This document shows positions 2,541 through 11,616 of a DNA stretch of 11,616 nt, piece by piece. The stretch is taken from the UHGV virus genome UHGV-0128598; one strand, 5' to 3'. The notes beneath the pieces are model-generated. The model was given only the letters and a program-made list of their open reading frames with translations, did no database searches and was not told the origin of the DNA. Origin of the DNA: a virus. Position numbers and translations under genes: made by a program. The number at the start of each line of letters is the position of its first letter. Position 1 is the stretch's first letter.

Positions 2541-2587
2541 ACCTTACCCCCCGTAGGGAACACTATTAAGTGCTCCGAGGGTAAGGT
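2541..2587 (-). promoter_or_regulatory. Hairpin enclosing the holin ribosome-binding site (perfect 9-bp inverted repeat, 29-nt loop)
   Basis: Plus-strand ACCTTACCC at 2541-2549 is the exact reverse complement of GGGTAAGGT at 2579-2587. On the sense (minus) strand the 3' arm GGGUAAGGU sits immediately 5' of the holin AUG and contains the Shine-Dalgarno-like G-rich element. Confidence 0.4.
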
Positions 2588-2595
2588 GGTGATGT

Positions 2596-2610
2596 GGTCG
2601 GAATCCTGAC
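2596..2610. repeat. Copy A (degenerate) of the 16-bp inverted-repeat motif GGTCGGAATCCCGACC
   Basis: GGTCGGAATCCTGAC read directly; differs from copies B and C by one substitution, with the final base absent (next base is T). Lies in the acyltransferase-holin intergenic region, 55 nt upstream of the holin ATG. Confidence 0.6.
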
Positions 2611-2651: not shown

Positions 2652-3755
2652 TTAGGGTGTATTTAACCCTTTAATTTTTTTATGGCTTAGCAAGCCGAAC
2701 AGGCCCCATATTTTATTAAAGGCGCGTGTTACTTTTTTATCCAGAAGCTTTATGTACAGCGCTGCAATAGTAAACGATATTAACATCGAAATAACTATCG
2801 TCACCTCATAGTTAACAAAAGTCTTCGTAACCGGATATTCAACCCACCACTTCCTTTCAAACATAGCGTGAGACCAAAATCCGATATCGGCATGTATTAA
2901 ATACAGTGGGTATGTCATCGCCCCAAGAAACTTAACAACATTATAAAACTTACCGACTTCAGATACGTTAGATGCACACCAGGTTAACGTAACAAGAGAG
3001 ATACATGCGAGCAGAAGAGATGCATCAGAAACTGAATACCCAAAACTTCCATTTACATATGAATTAAAACCCAACATTCTATTATATATGAGGATCACAC
3101 TAAGAACCATCAAGACGAAATCAAAAGGAGATGGCTTATTTTTCATTATGTCATATATTACTATCCCTGCAATGAAATGACCGGCATGTTCAGTTATAAA
3201 TAGCGCATCAACAAAGCTAGAATGGATTAAAAATTGATTGCTGTATGAAATCACCAACCATGCAAAGCAAATCTCCCTTCTGTAACCACTCCAAATGTTA
3301 AATAACATCATAATGAAAACCAATATATAAAATGTCACCTCTTTCTGAATTGTCCAATAGATATCGCTAAAAAAATGATATCCGAACACTTGGGGGAAAA
3401 ACGTAAAGCTATAGAATAAAGAAACAATCCTTTCCTTAAAATCAACCATTGGTATAAAGCACTGAAACACTAAAACTATAAATCCAAATATTATAAAGGT
3501 GGGTACTATCCTATTAATCCTTGACTTAATAAATTCAACAGGTGTTCTTCCAACTGATGAAAGTGATATTACAAATCCACTTATAATGAAAAATAAATCA
3601 ACACCAAAGTCCCCAAAATAGAAGGCATTAACTGTTAACTCTTTCGGTAGGAAGCCTGAGATAGGCCCAGCGAACAAGTAGTGGTACAACATCACCATCA
3701 TAAATGCCATAAAGCGAAGACCGTCGAGCGCTTCAATCCTTACTGTGGTTTTCAT
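2652..3755 (-). CDS. Integral-membrane acyltransferase, Acyl_transf_3 (OafA/Oac) family; probable O-antigen O-acetyltransferase
   Basis: The track starts at TTG 3758; ATG at 3755 is the likely start (AGAGGA upstream), about 367 aa. Highly hydrophobic with many predicted transmembrane segments and the family motifs: R-x10-H (LDGLRFMAFMMVMLYH), FFxISG (VDLFFIISGFVIS) and RI.P (RINRIVPTF). Markedly AT-rich compared with its neighbours. Confidence 0.85.
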   Translation of the reverse strand: MKTTVRIEALDGLRFMAFMMVMLYHYLFAGPISGFLPKELTVNAFYFGDFGVDLFFIISGFVISLSSVGRTPVEFIKSRINRIVPTFIIFGFIVLVFQCFIPMVDFKERIVSLFYSFTFFPQVFGYHFFSDIYWTIQKEVTFYILVFIMMLFNIWSGYRREICFAWLVISYSNQFLIHSSFVDALFITEHAGHFIAGIVIYDIMKNKPSPFDFVLMVLSVILIYNRMLGFNSYVNGSFGYSVSDASLLLACISLVTLTWCASNVSEVGKFYNVVKFLGAMTYPLYLIHADIGFWSHAMFERKWWVEYPVTKTFVNYEVTIVISMLISFTIAALYIKLLDKKVTRAFNKIWGLFGLLSHKKIKGLNTP

Positions 3756-3760
3756 CAAAT

Positions 3761-3803
3761 CCTCTGGAGTATGCTTTTTACTAAGGAAATCATACCCCAG
3801 AGG
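3761..3803 (-). promoter_or_regulatory. 13-bp inverted repeat (17-nt loop) between tailspike and acyltransferase, enclosing the acyltransferase ribosome-binding site
   Basis: Plus-strand cctctggagtatg (3761-3773) and cataccccagagg (3791-3803) are reverse complements with one mismatch. On the minus-strand RNA that mismatch is a G-U wobble, so all 13 bp pair; on the plus-strand RNA it would be a C-A mismatch. The 3' arm contains the AGAGG element 5 nt before the start. Confidence 0.4.
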
Positions 3804-3819
3804 CTTTACTAATCAAAGT

Positions 3820-6342: not shown

Positions 6343-7953
6343 TTAATAATCGACTTCGACCTCATGGTCTCCGTCACTTAACTGCCAATGTTCCCGCGAT
6401 TGTCCGGTCGGAATCCCGACCACTTTGCCGATACGAACCGGCGTTGCACTAATAGCACCCGCACCAGAATCAATGAAATCGTCCGGCTGGTTGGTCAGTG
6501 CCGGGTTAAAGTCCCGCATCTGGTCGTACATCGGGCCATCAAGCACGTCAGTGTGCGCCCACAGGAAACGGGAAGACAAAGGAGCTTCGAACGCATCAAG
6601 GATACGCTTCTGCTTGTTTGTCACGCTGAATTCTTCCCGCACGCCGCACCCGGTACCTTTTAACGCCTGCCGCAGCAGTTTTCCCGCAAAGCCGCCGGGG
6701 CCGTTTACCTCGACACAAACAACGGGGATCTGGTATCGGATAACCAGCTCTTTAATCTGGGCGACCTGCCCGCCAGTAATCTTGTCGTTATCGTCAAACT
6801 CTGCCAGTTCACCAGTCAGCTCCTTGCAAACATGCCAGTACAGATGTCCGCGCGCGTCAGTCAGTATCAGGGATAACGCTGAGGCGTCCGCTTTCACTTT
6901 ACCGGTTGCCACGTCCCACCACGCCACAGCACCAACAATTTGCGTGCTGCCGAGCCACATCGAGGCGGTACGGTTGGCGTAGCGAATTTCAGGATGGATG
7001 TTGTACTCACGGATGCGATCAGGATCGAGACGAACGTCGCCAACGGGTTTACTGTGCAGCTGGTACTGGCTGTCCCACTCGTTAACGGTGCGACATTCTT
7101 TACGGCGCAACTCCAGCTCGTCATGATCGAATCGCTCAGGCCAGGCACATCCGGCGTAGAAATCAATAACCGTCTCTGGCGCCGCAGCAAACTCCACGCC
7201 GTCGGCGGTCAGCTTGTAGTCAACATCCTCGACCAGCAGTCGCGCCGCTTTATGGATGCCCGCGAAAACGTACTCCGGCCGGAACGGAATAACGTAGCGC
7301 AGCTGCGTGGCATCCTTCGCCTCGATGCGCTTTTCTTTCTCAAACAGTTTAATGGTCAGACAGTCAGCACCTGCCGATTCCATTTCATCGTAGAGGCTGT
7401 CATGTGTGTGCGGTGTACCGATAAAGAGCTTTCGCCCGCCGGGGATCAGGATGTGAGTTTGCTCGCTCAGGCGGTATCGCAGTTTCTCACGCGCTTCCGG
7501 CGTCTGGATGTTGCCGGGGACTTCCACGTCGTCGTTCTGGCACTCATTTGCACGCGCGCCGGTAACGTTCGACAGGATACCTTTTGCGAACATGCTCGCG
7601 TTACGCATATCCAGCGAACCGTTAACCCACCACTGCTCGACTGTGCCGAGTCCATCCGGCAACATGCCTTTTGTCAGGGGGTGATTGCGTAAAACGTTCT
7701 GCGTATCGCGGCTGGTTTTGCGCGCTGTGGAATCTGATTCAGACTGGTGCAGGACCCGGTACTGGCGGTCGCAGTAATATCGCCATGCGTTATAAACGCC
7801 CAGTATGGTAGATTTACCGAAACCACGAAAACAGCGAAGCACCGCAAGATTTCCGCGATGCTCCAGCCAGTGACAGGCACGATAGTGGCAGTCCGGAACG
7901 TCCCAGTTCATCCGCTCCGCCCACATTAAAAAGAAGGCGAGGAACGAAATCAT
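6343..7953 (-). CDS. Terminase large subunit, T7 gp19-like (DNA maturase B)
   Basis: 536 aa, ATG start. Walker A in RGFGKSTILG, plus DDVEVP...AREKL and FIGTPHTHDSLYDE, which resemble T7 gp19 as recalled (AFRGIGKS, ADDVEIP...AREKL, YLGTPQT..LY). Start overlaps the upstream gene stop as ATGA. Confidence 0.85.
   Translation of the reverse strand: MISFLAFFLMWAERMNWDVPDCHYRACHWLEHRGNLAVLRCFRGFGKSTILGVYNAWRYYCDRQYRVLHQSESDSTARKTSRDTQNVLRNHPLTKGMLPDGLGTVEQWWVNGSLDMRNASMFAKGILSNVTGARANECQNDDVEVPGNIQTPEAREKLRYRLSEQTHILIPGGRKLFIGTPHTHDSLYDEMESAGADCLTIKLFEKEKRIEAKDATQLRYVIPFRPEYVFAGIHKAARLLVEDVDYKLTADGVEFAAAPETVIDFYAGCAWPERFDHDELELRRKECRTVNEWDSQYQLHSKPVGDVRLDPDRIREYNIHPEIRYANRTASMWLGSTQIVGAVAWWDVATGKVKADASALSLILTDARGHLYWHVCKELTGELAEFDDNDKITGGQVAQIKELVIRYQIPVVCVEVNGPGGFAGKLLRQALKGTGCGVREEFSVTNKQKRILDAFEAPLSSRFLWAHTDVLDGPMYDQMRDFNPALTNQPDDFIDSGAGAISATPVRIGKVVGIPTGQSREHWQLSDGDHEVEVDY
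6406..6421. repeat. Copy B of the 16-bp inverted-repeat motif GGTCGGAATCCCGACC (6-bp arms, 4-nt spacer)
   Basis: Exact 16-mer shared with copy C. Lies inside the last 26 codons or so of the terminase gene (encoding ...VGIPTG...), 84 nt upstream of the tailspike ATG. Confidence 0.65.
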
Positions 7954-8291
7954 TTTTTGCCTTTCTGCAGGCGCTCGATAATGGCGAGGGCTTCACGCTC
8001 CGCCTTCGATACCTGCTGCCCCAGCGCAAAGGCTTCATCATCCTGCCCGGGGTTATCTGAAGGCGTACCACCGCGCGTTTGCATGCCAATAAGGGAATGC
8101 ACCTTAATCAGCAGCGTCAGCGAAGCCGCCGCGTTCTTCTTGTCCCAGTATCGATCGCCGCGCTCGTCTTTGGTCAGTTCGCTGGGTTTCTTCCCCGCCC
8201 CCGGCCAGTTGTCCGGATCGGCTTCTTCGAGCACCACGTCAGTGAGTTTATCGCTCAGCGCGGTAAGGCGTGTCTTGTAATCCTGATGCAT
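7950..8291 (-). CDS. Putative terminase small subunit (called by position only)
   Basis: The track extends to a TTG at 8375, but that would read through a terminator-like hairpin and the 3' end of the upstream gene. The first ATG is at 8291 (MHQDYKTRLTALSDK..., 113 aa). Acidic/charged small protein whose stop overlaps the large terminase start (ATGA). No sequence motif recognised. Confidence 0.45.
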   Translation of the reverse strand: MHQDYKTRLTALSDKLTDVVLEEADPDNWPGAGKKPSELTKDERGDRYWDKKNAAASLTLLIKVHSLIGMQTRGGTPSDNPGQDDEAFALGQQVSKAEREALAIIERLQKGKK

Positions 8292-8319
8292 AAAAAAGCC
8301 CTGTAGTGAATACAGGGCT
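8292..8319 (-). terminator. Intrinsic-terminator-like hairpin (9-bp stem, 5-nt loop) followed by T6 on the minus strand
   Basis: Minus strand reads AGCCCTGTA-TTCAC-TACAGGGCT-TTTTT and then the ATG at 8291. Lies between the gp16-like gene stop (8356) and the small terminase start. It leaves no room for a Shine-Dalgarno element, so it may instead be a leader or processing structure. Confidence 0.5.
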
Positions 8320-8337
8320 ATGGTGTATGCTTTTTGA

Positions 8338-8353
8338 GGTCGGAATCCCGACC
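8338..8353. repeat. Copy C of the 16-bp inverted-repeat motif GGTCGGAATCCCGACC
   Basis: Exact 16-mer, starting 2 nt after the stop of the gp16-like gene on the minus strand, 46 nt upstream of the small terminase ATG and just upstream of the terminator-like hairpin. Confidence 0.65.
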
Positions 8354-8355
8354 GA

Positions 8356-9870
8356 TTACCGCATGCCGGGGTCAACCTGATTTATCAGCGGCGCTATCCA
8401 GAAAAGATTATTACCCGGCAGCAGCGTACGCACGTTATGCAGTACCCGATCGCCAGCATCACCGTTGAGCACTCCGGCGGTCACATCGGTGACGGTATCC
8501 AGCAAGCCAAACGTCGGGCCGAGAGCGGAGCCAATAAAGCCACGGCTGGCATAGCGAGACTGTGTGCCGGTACCGAGCAGTGCACCCAGCCCCACCATAC
8601 CGCCGGAGGCTTTTTCTGCCATGTTGTTATATTCCATCAGCGGGCCGAGAATACCGGACCGGTCGATACCTTCAATGGCCAGTTTCTGAGGCGACCAGTC
8701 AACCTCTTTACCATTTGCGGATTGTTTAAGTGCGTACGTCAGTGCGCCGAGGCTAATCTGGAAAGCGGTACCGTAATAAAACTGTCCGGTTCCCTCCTGC
8801 AGGCCGCCCAGCGTTGCGCGGTTGTAGGACGCGGTAGCGAACGATTTAAACTGGAAGATAGTTTTACCCAGTGGCGTGCTGGCCCACAATGGCGTATCGC
8901 CGATCCCCGGTGTGATAACTGTATTGTTAACGTCTTTGAGCACGGCCGACTGAAAAACGCCAGCCACATGCTGATCGTCCCATTTTTCAAAATTGCCGAT
9001 ATGCCAGCCATTGATTACCTCACCGTGTTTTTCGAATTCGCTGCGAATACGCGCGGCCATATTGTCGTTAATGCCGAGCTTGGCAAGGCGGCGGCCCGCA
9101 AACGCGCCGGACAGAATGCCGTCGGAGGTGATCATGCCGTTTACCGATTTGTTCATATCGTCGAAGTGGCCCATCAGCGTGAGCTTGCCGAACGCATCGG
9201 TGACGCGCTCCATTCCCGCCTCTACCGCTGTAGTGCGGGAGGAGCTGTCTACCAGGTCACCCATCGTACGCGCACGGGTATGCAGGATGGTTTCCAGCCC
9301 GACGGCCATTTTTAACTGTTCGGCCCGGCTGGCCTTGAATGCCGGCGACCGGGTTATCAGCGCAGAGTAACCGCGCATGGTATTGCCAAACCCGTTAACC
9401 ATCACACCGCGGGCGAGATCAGGAATAGCGGAAACGGTCATACCGCCCAGCTTGGTGACAAAGTTGGCGCTACGCAGAAACGCACCGGCGCGAACGAAAA
9501 ATGATGATGGGTCATCCGGCATACCGTAGGTACCGACGAGGCGATCGCGAAGCGCCAGAATATCGCGCAGATCGGCTTCGCGCGCCTTCGCCAGCTTTTC
9601 CTGCTCTGCCGGGCGTAACCGCATCAGCGCGTCGTATTCGTCCTGGATGGCAGCGAGCTGCGAATCCAGCGACTTGTTGCCAAAGGTACGGGTTAATTCA
9701 ATTTCCGCTGAGGCTTCGCGGATATGACGCTGCAGGACGTAGTTTGCATCGCTCTCCAGATAATCTTTCATCAGGCGATCGGGAACGCTCAACGTACGCG
9801 ATTTGGTGCTGCCCGGCGATTTCAGCATCTTCGCGGGACATGGTTTTCTCACCGCGTGACCACCAGTCAA
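8356..9870 (-). CDS. Internal virion (ejection) protein, T7 gp16-like, C-terminal portion; apparently separated from the N-terminal portion by a frameshift
   Basis: 504-aa ORF. Gly/Ala-rich hydrophobic stretches and a FQFKSF motif resembling the C-terminal part of T7 gp16 as recalled. The first 30 codons or so look non-protein-like and overlap the upstream ORF, so the true N-terminal boundary is probably the frame junction near 9795-9802. Confidence 0.6.
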   Translation of the reverse strand: MTGGHAVRKPCPAKMLKSPGSTKSRTLSVPDRLMKDYLESDANYVLQRHIREASAEIELTRTFGNKSLDSQLAAIQDEYDALMRLRPAEQEKLAKAREADLRDILALRDRLVGTYGMPDDPSSFFVRAGAFLRSANFVTKLGGMTVSAIPDLARGVMVNGFGNTMRGYSALITRSPAFKASRAEQLKMAVGLETILHTRARTMGDLVDSSSRTTAVEAGMERVTDAFGKLTLMGHFDDMNKSVNGMITSDGILSGAFAGRRLAKLGINDNMAARIRSEFEKHGEVINGWHIGNFEKWDDQHVAGVFQSAVLKDVNNTVITPGIGDTPLWASTPLGKTIFQFKSFATASYNRATLGGLQEGTGQFYYGTAFQISLGALTYALKQSANGKEVDWSPQKLAIEGIDRSGILGPLMEYNNMAEKASGGMVGLGALLGTGTQSRYASRGFIGSALGPTFGLLDTVTDVTAGVLNGDAGDRVLHNVRTLLPGNNLFWIAPLINQVDPGMR

Positions 9871-11182
9871 CCAGCATATTGCGGAATTTATCTCGCTCGC
9901 TAACGATTTTACCCACCTTGTACACGCGCGGAAAATAGCTGGTCTGTCCCATCGCTTTCAGTTCGGCATCCGGCGGGAGTAAGCCCAGTTCCTGCTGGGC
10001 TGTCTTCACGCGGTTAATGACCGTACGCATTGCCTGCGCAGCTTCCTGCACTTTTGCATTAACGTGCACGTCGCCGTTACGCAGCGCCTCGCCAACCTGT
10101 TCACGGAAGGCCGTATAACCCAGATCGCCGCCTTCGGCTTTATACTGGGTGTATGCCTGCTTATTCGCAGTAACGACGGCCGCCTCTTCGCGGTGCCAGC
10201 CACGTACGCGCGTCTCGGCTGCTACCGGTGTTTCGATACCGCGCAGGTTGCCTTCCAGCGTGAAGTTATTCTCCGCCAACTCCAGCGCTGTCCGGCGCGC
10301 TTCTTTTGATGGGGATTCCATCAGGCGGGTGATCGGCGTCAGATAGCTACCGGCCTTTTTAGCCAGCTTGCCGAGCGGGCCGCCAGACACCGGTGTGAGG
10401 TCTTCCAGCGTTGCTTCGCGAATACGCATGGCGCCGACGCTGCCACCGTTCGGTAAAGTATCCGCCAGGGCGTCAGCTGCGTTGTTAATCGTTGGCGCGG
10501 CATTCATGTTATCGAGCGCCTCCGCCACTTCCCGTGTAGCCGCGTTTCTTACCGATGGGGTGATCATCGCGCCAGCAGTAGCAAATACACCGCTGAGAAG
10601 CGCGCCGGCTGTAATGTGCGCGGCGCTCTCCCTTGCTGTTCTGGTGTACTGCTCGTTATTGAGCGCAACCTCGCTAAGTGCGGTACCGGCGGCGCCAATA
10701 GCAATCTGAGAACCAATACGAGCAGCCAGGCTTCCCTGCGCACCGGGAATAAACATCGATGCGACCGTGACAGGGTCGATAACCCCGGCGGCGATACTGG
10801 CCAGAGTTCCTTCAGCGCCTGCCTCAGACAAAACCCGACGGTCTTCATTTTCATCGTCTATCTGGTTTTTTATCCAGGCGGTTTCCTCTGGCGATCGAGA
10901 ATCCGCAAAGGCGGATCCCCATTGTTCGTACCCCTTTAGTTCGTTTTTATCAGAATAAGGGTTATACCCGTCCGCCGGTTCGAATTGTTTGGCCGAGCGG
11001 AACATTCCAGCCAGCAGGTTATTCTGACGAAATGCAGCGCCCCACACAGACGGCTCATCCTGCTGAGGTGCTGGGTTAGTACCTTCAGGCAAAGGCACAT
11101 CAAATCCGGTAGGTGCAGCCAGGACATTACCCGCCGGAGTGAATCCGTTATTGAGTTCTTCAGGGGTGGCGTATACCGGCAT
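9698..11182 (-). CDS. Internal virion (ejection) protein, T7 gp16-like, N-terminal/central portion
   Basis: 494-aa ORF, ATG start overlapping the upstream stop (TAATG). Motifs resemble T7 gp16 as recalled: TPEEL, SEAGAEGTLASIAAGVIDPVTVASMFIPG (compare AGIIGAGVDPLSYVPMVG) and EKTMSREDAEI (compare AKMSREETRY). The last 30 codons or so are low-complexity and overlap the next ORF in another frame. No N-terminal transglycosylase-like region is evident. Confidence 0.6.
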   Translation of the reverse strand: MPVYATPEELNNGFTPAGNVLAAPTGFDVPLPEGTNPAPQQDEPSVWGAAFRQNNLLAGMFRSAKQFEPADGYNPYSDKNELKGYEQWGSAFADSRSPEETAWIKNQIDDENEDRRVLSEAGAEGTLASIAAGVIDPVTVASMFIPGAQGSLAARIGSQIAIGAAGTALSEVALNNEQYTRTARESAAHITAGALLSGVFATAGAMITPSVRNAATREVAEALDNMNAAPTINNAADALADTLPNGGSVGAMRIREATLEDLTPVSGGPLGKLAKKAGSYLTPITRLMESPSKEARRTALELAENNFTLEGNLRGIETPVAAETRVRGWHREEAAVVTANKQAYTQYKAEGGDLGYTAFREQVGEALRNGDVHVNAKVQEAAQAMRTVINRVKTAQQELGLLPPDAELKAMGQTSYFPRVYKVGKIVSERDKFRNMLVDWWSRGEKTMSREDAEIAGQHQIAYVERSRSPDERLSGERCKLRPAASYPRSLSGN

Positions 11183-11577
11183 TATTCAGTGCTCCACGAA
11201 AAGTAATTTTTAACCCTGTCCATGCGCTCGTTATGCAGGCGCTTGTACTGCTCATCGAGCGCACGGTGCTTATCTTTGAACCCACGAATATCCTGCCCGC
11301 GTTGCAGCTCATTGCGATCATGTTCTTCGCGCTCTTCCTGCATTTTTTTGTATGGCGCCCACTCTTCCAGTGACGGTTTCCAGCGCATCGGCCTGCCGTA
11401 CGAATCGTAGAACGGTTGTACCGCCTCGATACCATCCTTATCTTTTGTTCGCACCATGATGGCGTAATCGCCATTGCGGGCCGTCAGTACATCAGGGGTA
11501 ATTTCCAGATCGCCGCCAATACGCGACTCCGGCGTTTTGCTGGTGACAGGCGCTGCGTTACCGGGTGATGCTGCCAA
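11182..11577 (-). CDS. Hypothetical protein, translationally coupled to the gp16-like gene
   Basis: The track ORF starts at a TTG (11577) with no ribosome-binding site. The first ATG is at 11457 (MVRTKDKDG..., about 91 aa). Charged, helix-like C-terminus. Stop overlaps the next start (TAATG). A different frame is open from the window edge to a stop at 11484-11486, so an upstream gene may be cut by the window. Start and reality of this ORF are uncertain. Confidence 0.35.
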   Translation of the reverse strand: MAASPGNAAPVTSKTPESRIGGDLEITPDVLTARNGDYAIMVRTKDKDGIEAVQPFYDSYGRPMRWKPSLEEWAPYKKMQEEREEHDRNELQRGQDIRGFKDKHRALDEQYKRLHNERMDRVKNYFSWSTE

Positions 11578-11616
11578 CTTACTGATTTAGTGTATGATGG
11601 TGTTTTTGAGGTGCTC

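Follow-up and report, generated by a model that had tools for sequence, protein, structure and literature searches.

How can a gene be expressed when a terminator-like hairpin and its run of T residues end directly at its start codon? The question is raised by the virus genome UHGV-0128598, of which we analyzed one stretch of 11,616 nucleotides (nt; hereafter the window), at the junction between the structural genes and the putative packaging genes terS and terL. The first-pass annotation of this hairpin offered two choices, namely partial termination with read-through and S1-dependent initiation of translation, or a leader or processing structure, and regarded either as a possible control point for packaging-gene expression. 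We also judge the control point plausible, but the two choices missed the repeated, promoter-like context in which the hairpin is set. We favor, with a probability of roughly one half, a reading from sequence in which the hairpin is an intrinsic terminator for transcripts arriving from upstream and is overlapped by a factor-dependent late promoter that would start the terS-terL mRNA inside the 5' arm of the stem and thereby free the ribosome-binding site. All positions below are window coordinates unless a locus is named, and the late genes and the hairpin are read on the minus strand.

Direct reading bore out the description of a 9-base-pair (bp) stem, a 5-nt loop and six T on the coding strand, with the refinement that the first T (8297) closes the stem, so that five are unpaired. 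The stem consists of nine Watson-Crick pairs without a mismatch, five of them G-C, and the last T touches the A of the ATG at 8291, as had been noted. The hairpin alone was calculated at -14.4 kcal/mol, and a 106-nt region folded with a z-score of -4.05, none of 200 shuffles folding as well. On both strands of the 11.6-kb window, only one T-run was found to follow a perfect stem of 9 bp or more, and such a combination arose in only 4 of 300 dinucleotide-preserving shuffles (mean 0.017). Rare in shuffles, strong in its fold and unique in the window, this hairpin is real rather than a product of chance. Its dimensions are those of an intrinsic terminator (G+C-rich stem of ~5-14 bp, loop of 3-8 nt), UUUUU(A)U follows the stem directly on its 3' side in the transcribed strand, and a consensus scan listed the site. 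A scan against Rfam (E <= 10) returned only terminator-like noise below threshold, the best match being Thr_leader with 20.2 bits against a gathering threshold of 55.

We compared 93 related loci (carrying L numbers below), which gave 65 distinct 110-nt upstream sequences and an alignment of the 78-nt module with 60 distinct rows. A second scan of viral contigs with protein alignment gave the same 80 loci, and more distant relatives were found via a search for contigs encoding the protein of the small open reading frame (ORF) that starts at 8291. All of the 60 variants possess the hairpin, with energies of -8.8 to -20.5 kcal/mol (mean -13.3), followed by a U-run abutting the ATG. The stem itself varies among relatives (AGCCCTGTA/TACGGGGCT, AGCCCTATGG/CCACGGGGCT and AGCCTCATGG/CCACGAGGCT), being AGCCTCATCA/TGATGGGGTT in YeP4, an inducible Yersinia podovirus (YeP4-6 are proven inducible phages; PMC6548840), and ATAGCCTCTTC/GAAGAGGCTAT in Pantoea. 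Nevertheless, 93.5% of the alignment cells were paired, against 33-55% in slid controls. Double-sided changes were found at the pairs 47-68, 50-65 and 52-63, together with many switches between U·G, C-G and U-A; pairing rather than sequence has been kept, through few independent events. The U·G wobbles fit only RNA of the sense strand, which is that of the late genes. Altogether, the hairpin merits the term terminator-like: every sequence feature of an intrinsic terminator is present on the coding strand, with the pairing kept and covarying across the 60 relatives.

The sole degenerate hairpin was that of a Sodalis metagenome-assembled genome (L012 3001-3252), which carries a C·C mismatch (-9.3 kcal/mol) and stands ahead of a pseudogene copy truncated to 83 amino acids (aa); this locus looks like a decaying prophage in a symbiont genome. 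In a distant relative with divergent genes upstream (L181 9960-10000; 51% identity), a conventional sigma-70-like promoter, TTGGGA-17-TACTAT, was found at the equivalent place and is directly followed by a short hairpin (GCCCA..TGGGC) that lies 9 nt before the ATG and has no U-run.

ATG 8291 is the start called by PGAP, position 1 of phrog_9277 aligns to it, and the N-terminus of the small ORF, MH.DYK.RL, is kept down to 41% identity. The upstream TTG at 8375, which the first-pass annotation had named as a possible start, was ruled out, because the T-run varies from 5 to 11 nt and so breaks the frame and because the sequence beyond the module is unrelated between relatives. The claim that the hairpin leaves no space for a ribosome-binding site was also in error. 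The 3' arm of the stem conceals a Shine-Dalgarno (SD)-like AGGG at canonical spacing (7 nt) from the ATG, and the T-run doubles as the U-rich spacer between SD and AUG. AGGG, GGGG or GAGG occupies -11 to -8 in 59 of the 60 variants, the exception (GGCG) being the Sodalis pseudogene copy, and the energies of the duplex with the anti-SD sequence range from -3.1 to -6.2 kcal/mol. The accessibility of this site depends on where the RNA begins: the computed probability of being unpaired was 0.0 for SD and AUG in read-through RNA and 0.04-0.67 per base for the SD in RNA starting at 8315-8311. Separately, we observed 5, 6, 7, 9 or 11 T before the ATG (L041, L042, L060, L067, L068 and L091), a length polymorphism that shifts the SD-AUG spacing from 6 to 12 nt; by its sequence, such a slippage-prone T homopolymer could tune translation of the small ORF.

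The hairpin is the downstream part of a longer module, which reads, in order, palindrome GGTC(G/A)GGATTCCGACC, spacer of constant length, hexamer CA(C/T)NAT, hairpin, T-run and ATG. The 15-bp motif GTC(G/A)GGATTCCGACC occurs in five exact copies in the complete prophage, all on the late-gene strand, and in none of the shuffles. These copies precede an ORF before the portal gene, the capsid gene, the small ORF, the tail fiber gene and the holin gene, and exactly 12 nt after each of them stands a hexamer of the form nAnnnT (CACACT, AACAAT, CACCAT, GAACAT and TACCCT). In the window, GTCRGGATTCCGACC-N12-nAnnnT was found three times (8352-8320, 6420-6388 and 2610-2578), as compared with 0 of 200 shuffles. 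YeP4 possesses five copies at equivalent places with a variant of its own, GGAAACCGAAC. More generally, the center of the motif is common to the sites within each genome (GATCC in Rosenbergiella, GAAACC in Pectobacterium, GATTTCG in Pantoea, GATCCC in Sodalis and GATTTCGAAT in Serratia) and changes in concert between phage genomes. Of 90 distinct sites falling into 16 classes, 88 have A at position +14 and 88 have T at +18, with no other downstream position comparable; the spacer is 12 nt long in 88, and the two sites that depart from the A and T are those with a spacer of 11 nt. In every variant, those of Serratia, Pantoea and YeP4 included, 0-1 nt separate the hexamer from the start of the hairpin. 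The most deeply conserved copy is the one embedded in the coding sequence at the terL 3' end (6388-6420), which is kept in L178-L181, relatives with 41-57% identity in the small ORF; two distant relatives (54-57% identity) keep the element ahead of other genes as well.

The two bases of a -10 element that are captured by sigma-70 are A-11 and T-7, and the hexamer CACCAT (8325-8320) carries A at position 2 and T at position 6 accordingly. As the geometry is fixed, A-11 and T-7 are conserved, the copies are co-oriented ahead of late gene clusters and the upstream half changes in concert, we infer a sigma-70-type promoter that works with a phage factor. Such a promoter would consist of the 15-16-bp palindrome in the place of the -35 element, the 12-nt spacer and the -10-like hexamer, the palindrome presumably being bound by a phage-encoded factor. 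A promoter of the T7 type was rejected, as instead of the ~23 bp of continuous conservation (-17 to +6) the element is bipartite with a non-conserved 12-nt spacer. We also rejected the reverse reading of CATCATA as a leftward -10 element (TATGAT), which is found only at the terS copy; the other four copies have no reverse hexamer, and the forward nAnnnT fits all five. The complete 34-kb prophage and the related YeP4 carry a CI/Cro-like switch, a VapE primase and a DNA polymerase, and no RNA polymerase gene is annotated across either of them, including the single-subunit polymerase of the T7 group. Thus, the host RNA polymerase must transcribe the T7-like structural genes. We searched the literature on the motif, the T7-like prophages at dusA, YeP4, vB_EcoM_APEC and Piluca, and found no promoter or terminator work and no transcript ends for this group.

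Together, these features suggest that the 64-nt gap between the stop codon of the upstream gp16-like gene (TAA 8358-8356) and ATG 8291 holds two overlapping elements, a terminator and a promoter. RNA arriving from upstream, either the long structural-gene transcript or, in relatives, transcripts of inserted genes (morons), would be stopped Rho-independently by the 9-bp hairpin and U-tract. Any RNA that escaped termination would have its SD-like AGGG and its AUG base-paired, and both termination and masking would insulate the packaging genes from upstream transcription. The same DNA would serve as one of five clade-specific late promoters read by the host RNA polymerase. Start sites usually lie 6-9 nt after the -10 hexamer, and as CACCAT abuts the base of the stem at 8319, the 5' arm is where initiation is predicted, at about 8315-8311. 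RNA started there could not form the 9-bp terminator because at least four of the nine stem bases would be missing. The leader of the resulting terS-terL mRNA would be about 22 nt long (GUAUUCACUACAGGGCUUUUUU), and what had been the 3' arm would act in it as the ribosome-binding site. The terS mRNA most likely begins in the hairpin, and would then need neither read-through nor initiation without an SD sequence.

What lies upstream of the module differs between relatives: it may be the gp16-like stop, the stop of a co-directional insert or the start of a reverse-strand gene ~22 nt away, but the module remains joined to the ATG in each case. Where reverse-strand genes begin so close, a promoter of its own is the simplest source of terS mRNA. 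A hot spot for cargo was seen at 8353-8358, where the gp16-like stop is followed by the module (L003, L005-L012, L018, L020, L026, L053 and L064-L093): inserts of 400-1400 bp, with genes of 100-250 aa in either orientation, are found there, in every case on the upstream side of the palindrome, and a common co-directional cargo ORF of 106 aa ends at the same TAA. Terminator-like hairpins were also seen at other boundaries. Outside the window, the major capsid gene is directly followed by a strong one (seven G-C pairs) with a T-run (L001 11316-11334), in the place that Tphi has in T7, and weaker ones lie 6-25 nt upstream of copies 1 and 2 of the motif (L001 ~6675-6745 and 10190-10219). Cargo of either orientation upstream of the module and terminator-like hairpins at other boundaries fit the reading of a terminator joined to a promoter.

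Several points weigh against that reading. Both activities, termination and initiation, are read off the sequence, and the covariation of the stem rests on few independent events among closely related sequences. The -35 position holds GGATTC, with nothing resembling TTGACA 16-18 bp upstream of the hexamer, and the consensus scan of the region reported no sigma-70-type promoter. The hexamers CACCAT, GAACAT and TACCCT are weak -10 elements; together with the missing -35 this means that activity depends on a factor, and the candidate named below may be that factor but was chosen by its position alone. The holin gene of one distant relative (L179 5804-5880; 57% identity) is preceded by a copy of the motif with the hexamer CATCCT and, ~20 nt further on, by a hairpin (CCCCGC..GCGGGG) and CTTTCTTT. 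RNA started from that copy would contain the hairpin, and therefore the factor may also act by antitermination. Finally, the relatives with 41-57% identity all lack a terminator ahead of the small ORF, which in three of them abuts the upstream gene, so that the terminator arrangement is clade-specific and dispensable.

Coordinates of the hairpin, the bipartite element and its neighboring genes in the window (SD, Shine-Dalgarno; IR1, upstream element)
Feature	Coordinates	Strand	Basis or remark
gp16-like internal virion protein gene, 3' part	8356..9870	minus	phrog_16310 and phrog_342 matches; stop TAA 8358-8356
Upstream element IR1, imperfect 16-bp palindrome GGTCGGGATTCCGACC	8338..8353	minus	~-40 to -25 from predicted start, in the place of -35
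12-nt spacer	8326..8337	minus	alignment; sequence variable, length constant
-10-like hexamer CACCAT (nAnnAT), abutting the hairpin	8320..8325	minus	A2, A5 and T6 invariant in 60 relatives
Hairpin 5' arm AGCCCTGTA	8319-8311	minus	direct reading
Hairpin loop TTCAC, 5 nt	8310-8306	minus	direct reading
Hairpin 3' arm TACAGGGCT	8305-8297	minus	direct reading
SD-like AGGG	8299..8302	minus	-11..-8 from ATG, 7 nt away, within the 3' arm of the stem
T-run / U-tract	8292..8297	minus	TTTTT 8296-8292, then ATG 8291-8289
113-aa three-helix protein (phrog_9277), small-terminase position	7950..8291	minus	stop overlaps terL start (ATGA)
Large terminase (T7-type), second gene of predicted packaging unit	6343..7953	minus	phrog_38 and PF22530 matches; PGAP: terL
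Second copy in the window, GTCGGGATTCCGACC-N12-GAACAT	6388..6420	minus	inside terL 3' end, 99 nt before tail fiber ATG 6321
Third copy in the window, GTCAGGATTCCGACC-N12-TACCCT	2578..2610	minus	76 nt before holin ATG 2534; equivalent copy in L003 and YeP4

The lack of a -35 element and the L179 arrangement, in which the motif is followed by a complete hairpin and T-run before the holin gene, would also make sense if the hairpin were a partial terminator and all terS-terL mRNA were read-through from the structural operon, the motif loading an antiterminator either as nut/boxB-like RNA or as a Q-like DNA site and so letting polymerase pass the hairpin late in infection, with initiation of translation masked by the hairpin or U-rich. 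This is in essence the read-through choice of the first-pass annotation with antitermination added. It also speaks for this view that the motif, 19 nt upstream of the hairpin, can form a 6-bp stem and that the strong terminator after the capsid gene lies downstream of another copy. However, when IR1 is read as an RNA helix, its central pair is A·C in 30 of the 60 relatives, with one compensation. As the pairing is not maintained, we rejected a conserved RNA hairpin of the lambda nut/boxB type, which argues for recognition of the palindrome as DNA. An antitermination site gives no role to the invariant +14 A and +18 T at their fixed spacing, and five co-oriented copies before gene clusters resemble promoters rather than nut sites. 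In addition, read-through RNA would have its SD and AUG fully paired and, in some relatives, would have to cross reverse-strand genes in antisense. We consider this alternative unlikely.

The cargo hot spot is open to another view, namely that the hairpin is a plain terminator and 3'-end stabilizer at the end of an operon or moron, which would stop transcription of morons expressed in the prophage from running into the terminase genes, that the motif is an operator or another DNA site unrelated to initiation, and that terS is expressed by low read-through or from an unrecognized promoter. The module has all inserts, of either strand, on its upstream side, the co-directional ones end at their shared TAA 36 nt before the hairpin, which would be their terminator, and terminator-like hairpins are also present just upstream of motif copies 1 and 2. 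On the other hand, a plain terminator explains neither the fixed bipartite geometry with its -10-like hexamer nor the start of the hairpin 0-1 nt after that hexamer in all variants, and it leaves the source of terS mRNA unexplained where the upstream neighbors are divergent. We thus hold it to be distinctly unlikely.

It is improbable that the hairpin is instead a structure for RNA processing or a 5' leader, serving as a determinant of cleavage or stability like the intergenic RNase III sites of T7. The T7-like gene order of the prophage and the conservation of a hairpin with U·G wobbles on the sense strand directly 5' of the AUG are consistent with it, but the stem, at 9 bp, falls well short of an RNase III substrate, the invariant U-run directly on its 3' side is a hallmark of intrinsic terminators, no Rfam family matched, and a stable hairpin masking the SD would inhibit translation rather than help it. 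A DNA packaging site, with the palindrome, the hairpin repeat or both recognized by terminase, is highly improbable, since, although pac or cos sites often lie immediately upstream of terS-terL, as this module does, and the 16-bp motif is palindromic, the motif recurs in five copies ahead of unrelated gene clusters, the tolerated U·G pairs are mismatches on the other DNA strand, and none of the fetched loci on virus-derived contigs ends at the module.

To return to the terminator joined to a factor-dependent promoter, the protein that reads the palindrome may be the 91-aa helix-turn-helix (HTH) protein phrog_16553 (labelled 'transcriptional repressor'), which is encoded just before the first copy of the motif (L001 6274-6549) and has a homologue of 45% identity at the same place in YeP4 (L095 17512-17748). 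The candidate regulators scanned among the small proteins gave only weak generic HTH, PerC-like or PrtN/excisionase matches, with no Mor/C, MotA or Ogr homologue among them. A PrtN-family protein was set aside as a late activator; as it adjoins the attachment site, it is more likely an excisionase (phrog_1300). A wider proposal, to which we give somewhat less than even odds, is that GTC(G/A)GGA..CCGAC-N12-nAnnnT represents an undescribed class of factor-dependent late promoters, which would give temperate phages of the T7 supergroup without an RNA polymerase a T7-like late map of multiple promoters read by the host polymerase. At the packaging genes, it would be fused to an intrinsic terminator that ends one unit and starts the next inside its own stem, turning the 3' arm into a ribosome-binding site, and the phrog_16553 HTH protein may be its factor.

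Rho-independent terminators in phage late regions set gene dosage, as do Tphi after gene 10 of T7 and the internal terminators of PhiX174 and the Ff phages. The present hairpin resembles them in being a G+C-rich hairpin with a U-tract between highly expressed structural genes and low-demand genes, and the strong terminator right after the capsid gene of this prophage is a further likeness to Tphi. Unlike them, the terminator described here touches the next start codon, holds its SD and overlaps a promoter-like element and, in contrast to T7, the polymerase is that of the host. Factor-dependent phage promoters without a -35 element include the late promoters of Mu (C), Pm of Mu (Mor), the middle promoters of T4 (a MotA box near -30, with AsiA) and the late promoters of P2 and 186 (Ogr/B). 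The element shares with this class the co-oriented copies before late clusters (five in the prophage and five in YeP4), the A and T of the -10, the missing -35 and a phage-specific sequence over the -35 region at a fixed spacing of 12 nt. In contrast, the sequence of the motif is unrelated to theirs; in view of this and of the regulators found, we regard the likeness as one of function and do not claim membership in the Mor/C, MotA or Ogr families.

With the PR'-tR' region of lambda and its Q protein, the module shares a promoter-linked DNA element followed by an intrinsic terminator that gates late genes. The copy before the holin gene in L179 has this layout, and its hairpin is possibly a leader terminator comparable to that of PR'-tR'. 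The module in the window differs in that the hairpin directly follows the -10, so that normally started RNA cannot contain it, in the presence of five copies instead of one, and in that no Q-like gene was identified. The junction also recalls the morons of HK97 and HK022, with variable cargo in either orientation at one junction between conserved late genes and beside a terminator, but the terminator/promoter module belongs to the phage backbone rather than to the cargo, which always lies upstream of it.

The identity of the first gene behind the module deserves comment. The small ORF had been called the small terminase. It lies immediately upstream of terL and its stop overlaps the terL start (ATGA, 7953-7950), an arrangement found in all relatives examined, so that the position and the translational linkage to terL stand, but neither sequence nor fold lends the name support. 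No TerS family match for the 113-aa ORF was found in Pfam, NCBIfam or the sequences of PDB, phrog_9277 is of 'unknown function', and every source labels the protein 'hypothetical'. An AlphaFold (AF2) model with three helices (pLDDT 81.8) gave no Foldseek match with E < 0.8 in PDB or BFVD. We therefore retain the name as putative, as a label from position ahead of the overlapping terL start. A tRNA-like stretch upstream of the small ORF in L176 was examined with ARAGORN, which found nothing.

The window is a prophage integrated at dusA in Escherichia coli, with 99.9-100% identity to strains STEC383 and B379. Its genes on the minus strand are, in order, the gp16-like internal virion protein, the 113-aa ORF, the T7-type large terminase, the tail fiber, an acyltransferase, the holin, the lysozyme and a further small ORF, and the integrase stands on the plus strand at the end of this order. 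The gp16-like gene is the last of the upstream structural transcription unit and is annotated as a single 967-aa coding sequence in STEC383. In the STEC383 prophage, 77 bp lie between two copies of a 15-bp direct repeat; they are missing from the window (9814-9828), where this gene (8356..11259, minus strand) is split as a result into two ORFs, 8356..9870 and 9698..11182, that overlap. This prophage copy may thus be defective, or there may be an error in the assembly. The last 52 nt (11565-11616) do not align to the STEC383 prophage, the remainder being 99.9% identical; given this unaligned end, the window is from a different strain or a mosaic.

The acyltransferase gene (2652..3758), which probably is an O-antigen-modifying conversion gene, has a sigma-70-like promoter match, TTGATT-16-TATGAT, just upstream (3789-3816, minus strand), and a terminator-like hairpin lies at its 3' end on the opposite (plus) strand (2654-2670). 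These sequence features suggest that the gene is expressed in the prophage state independently of the late promoters.

Intrinsic terminators between phage structural and packaging genes, as well as factor-dependent late promoters without a -35 element, are ordinary. Three things appear to be new: the promoter element itself, the map of five copies that it forms in phages whose structural genes are T7-like and which lack an RNA polymerase, and its fusion to a terminator whose 3' arm serves as a ribosome-binding site. For annotation, translation does not have to be SD-less where a terminator touches a start codon. If the proposed reading is true, it would define a promoter element of 33 bp and a candidate regulator, both directly testable, and would offer a compact case of a terminator and a promoter sharing sequence, in which a single stem ends one RNA and provides the next with its ribosome-binding site. 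It would also explain the accumulation of cargo genes at the junction upstream of the module and, for the inducible podovirus prophages of enterobacteria that reside at dusA and carry T7-like virion genes without a phage RNA polymerase, how their late genes are transcribed.

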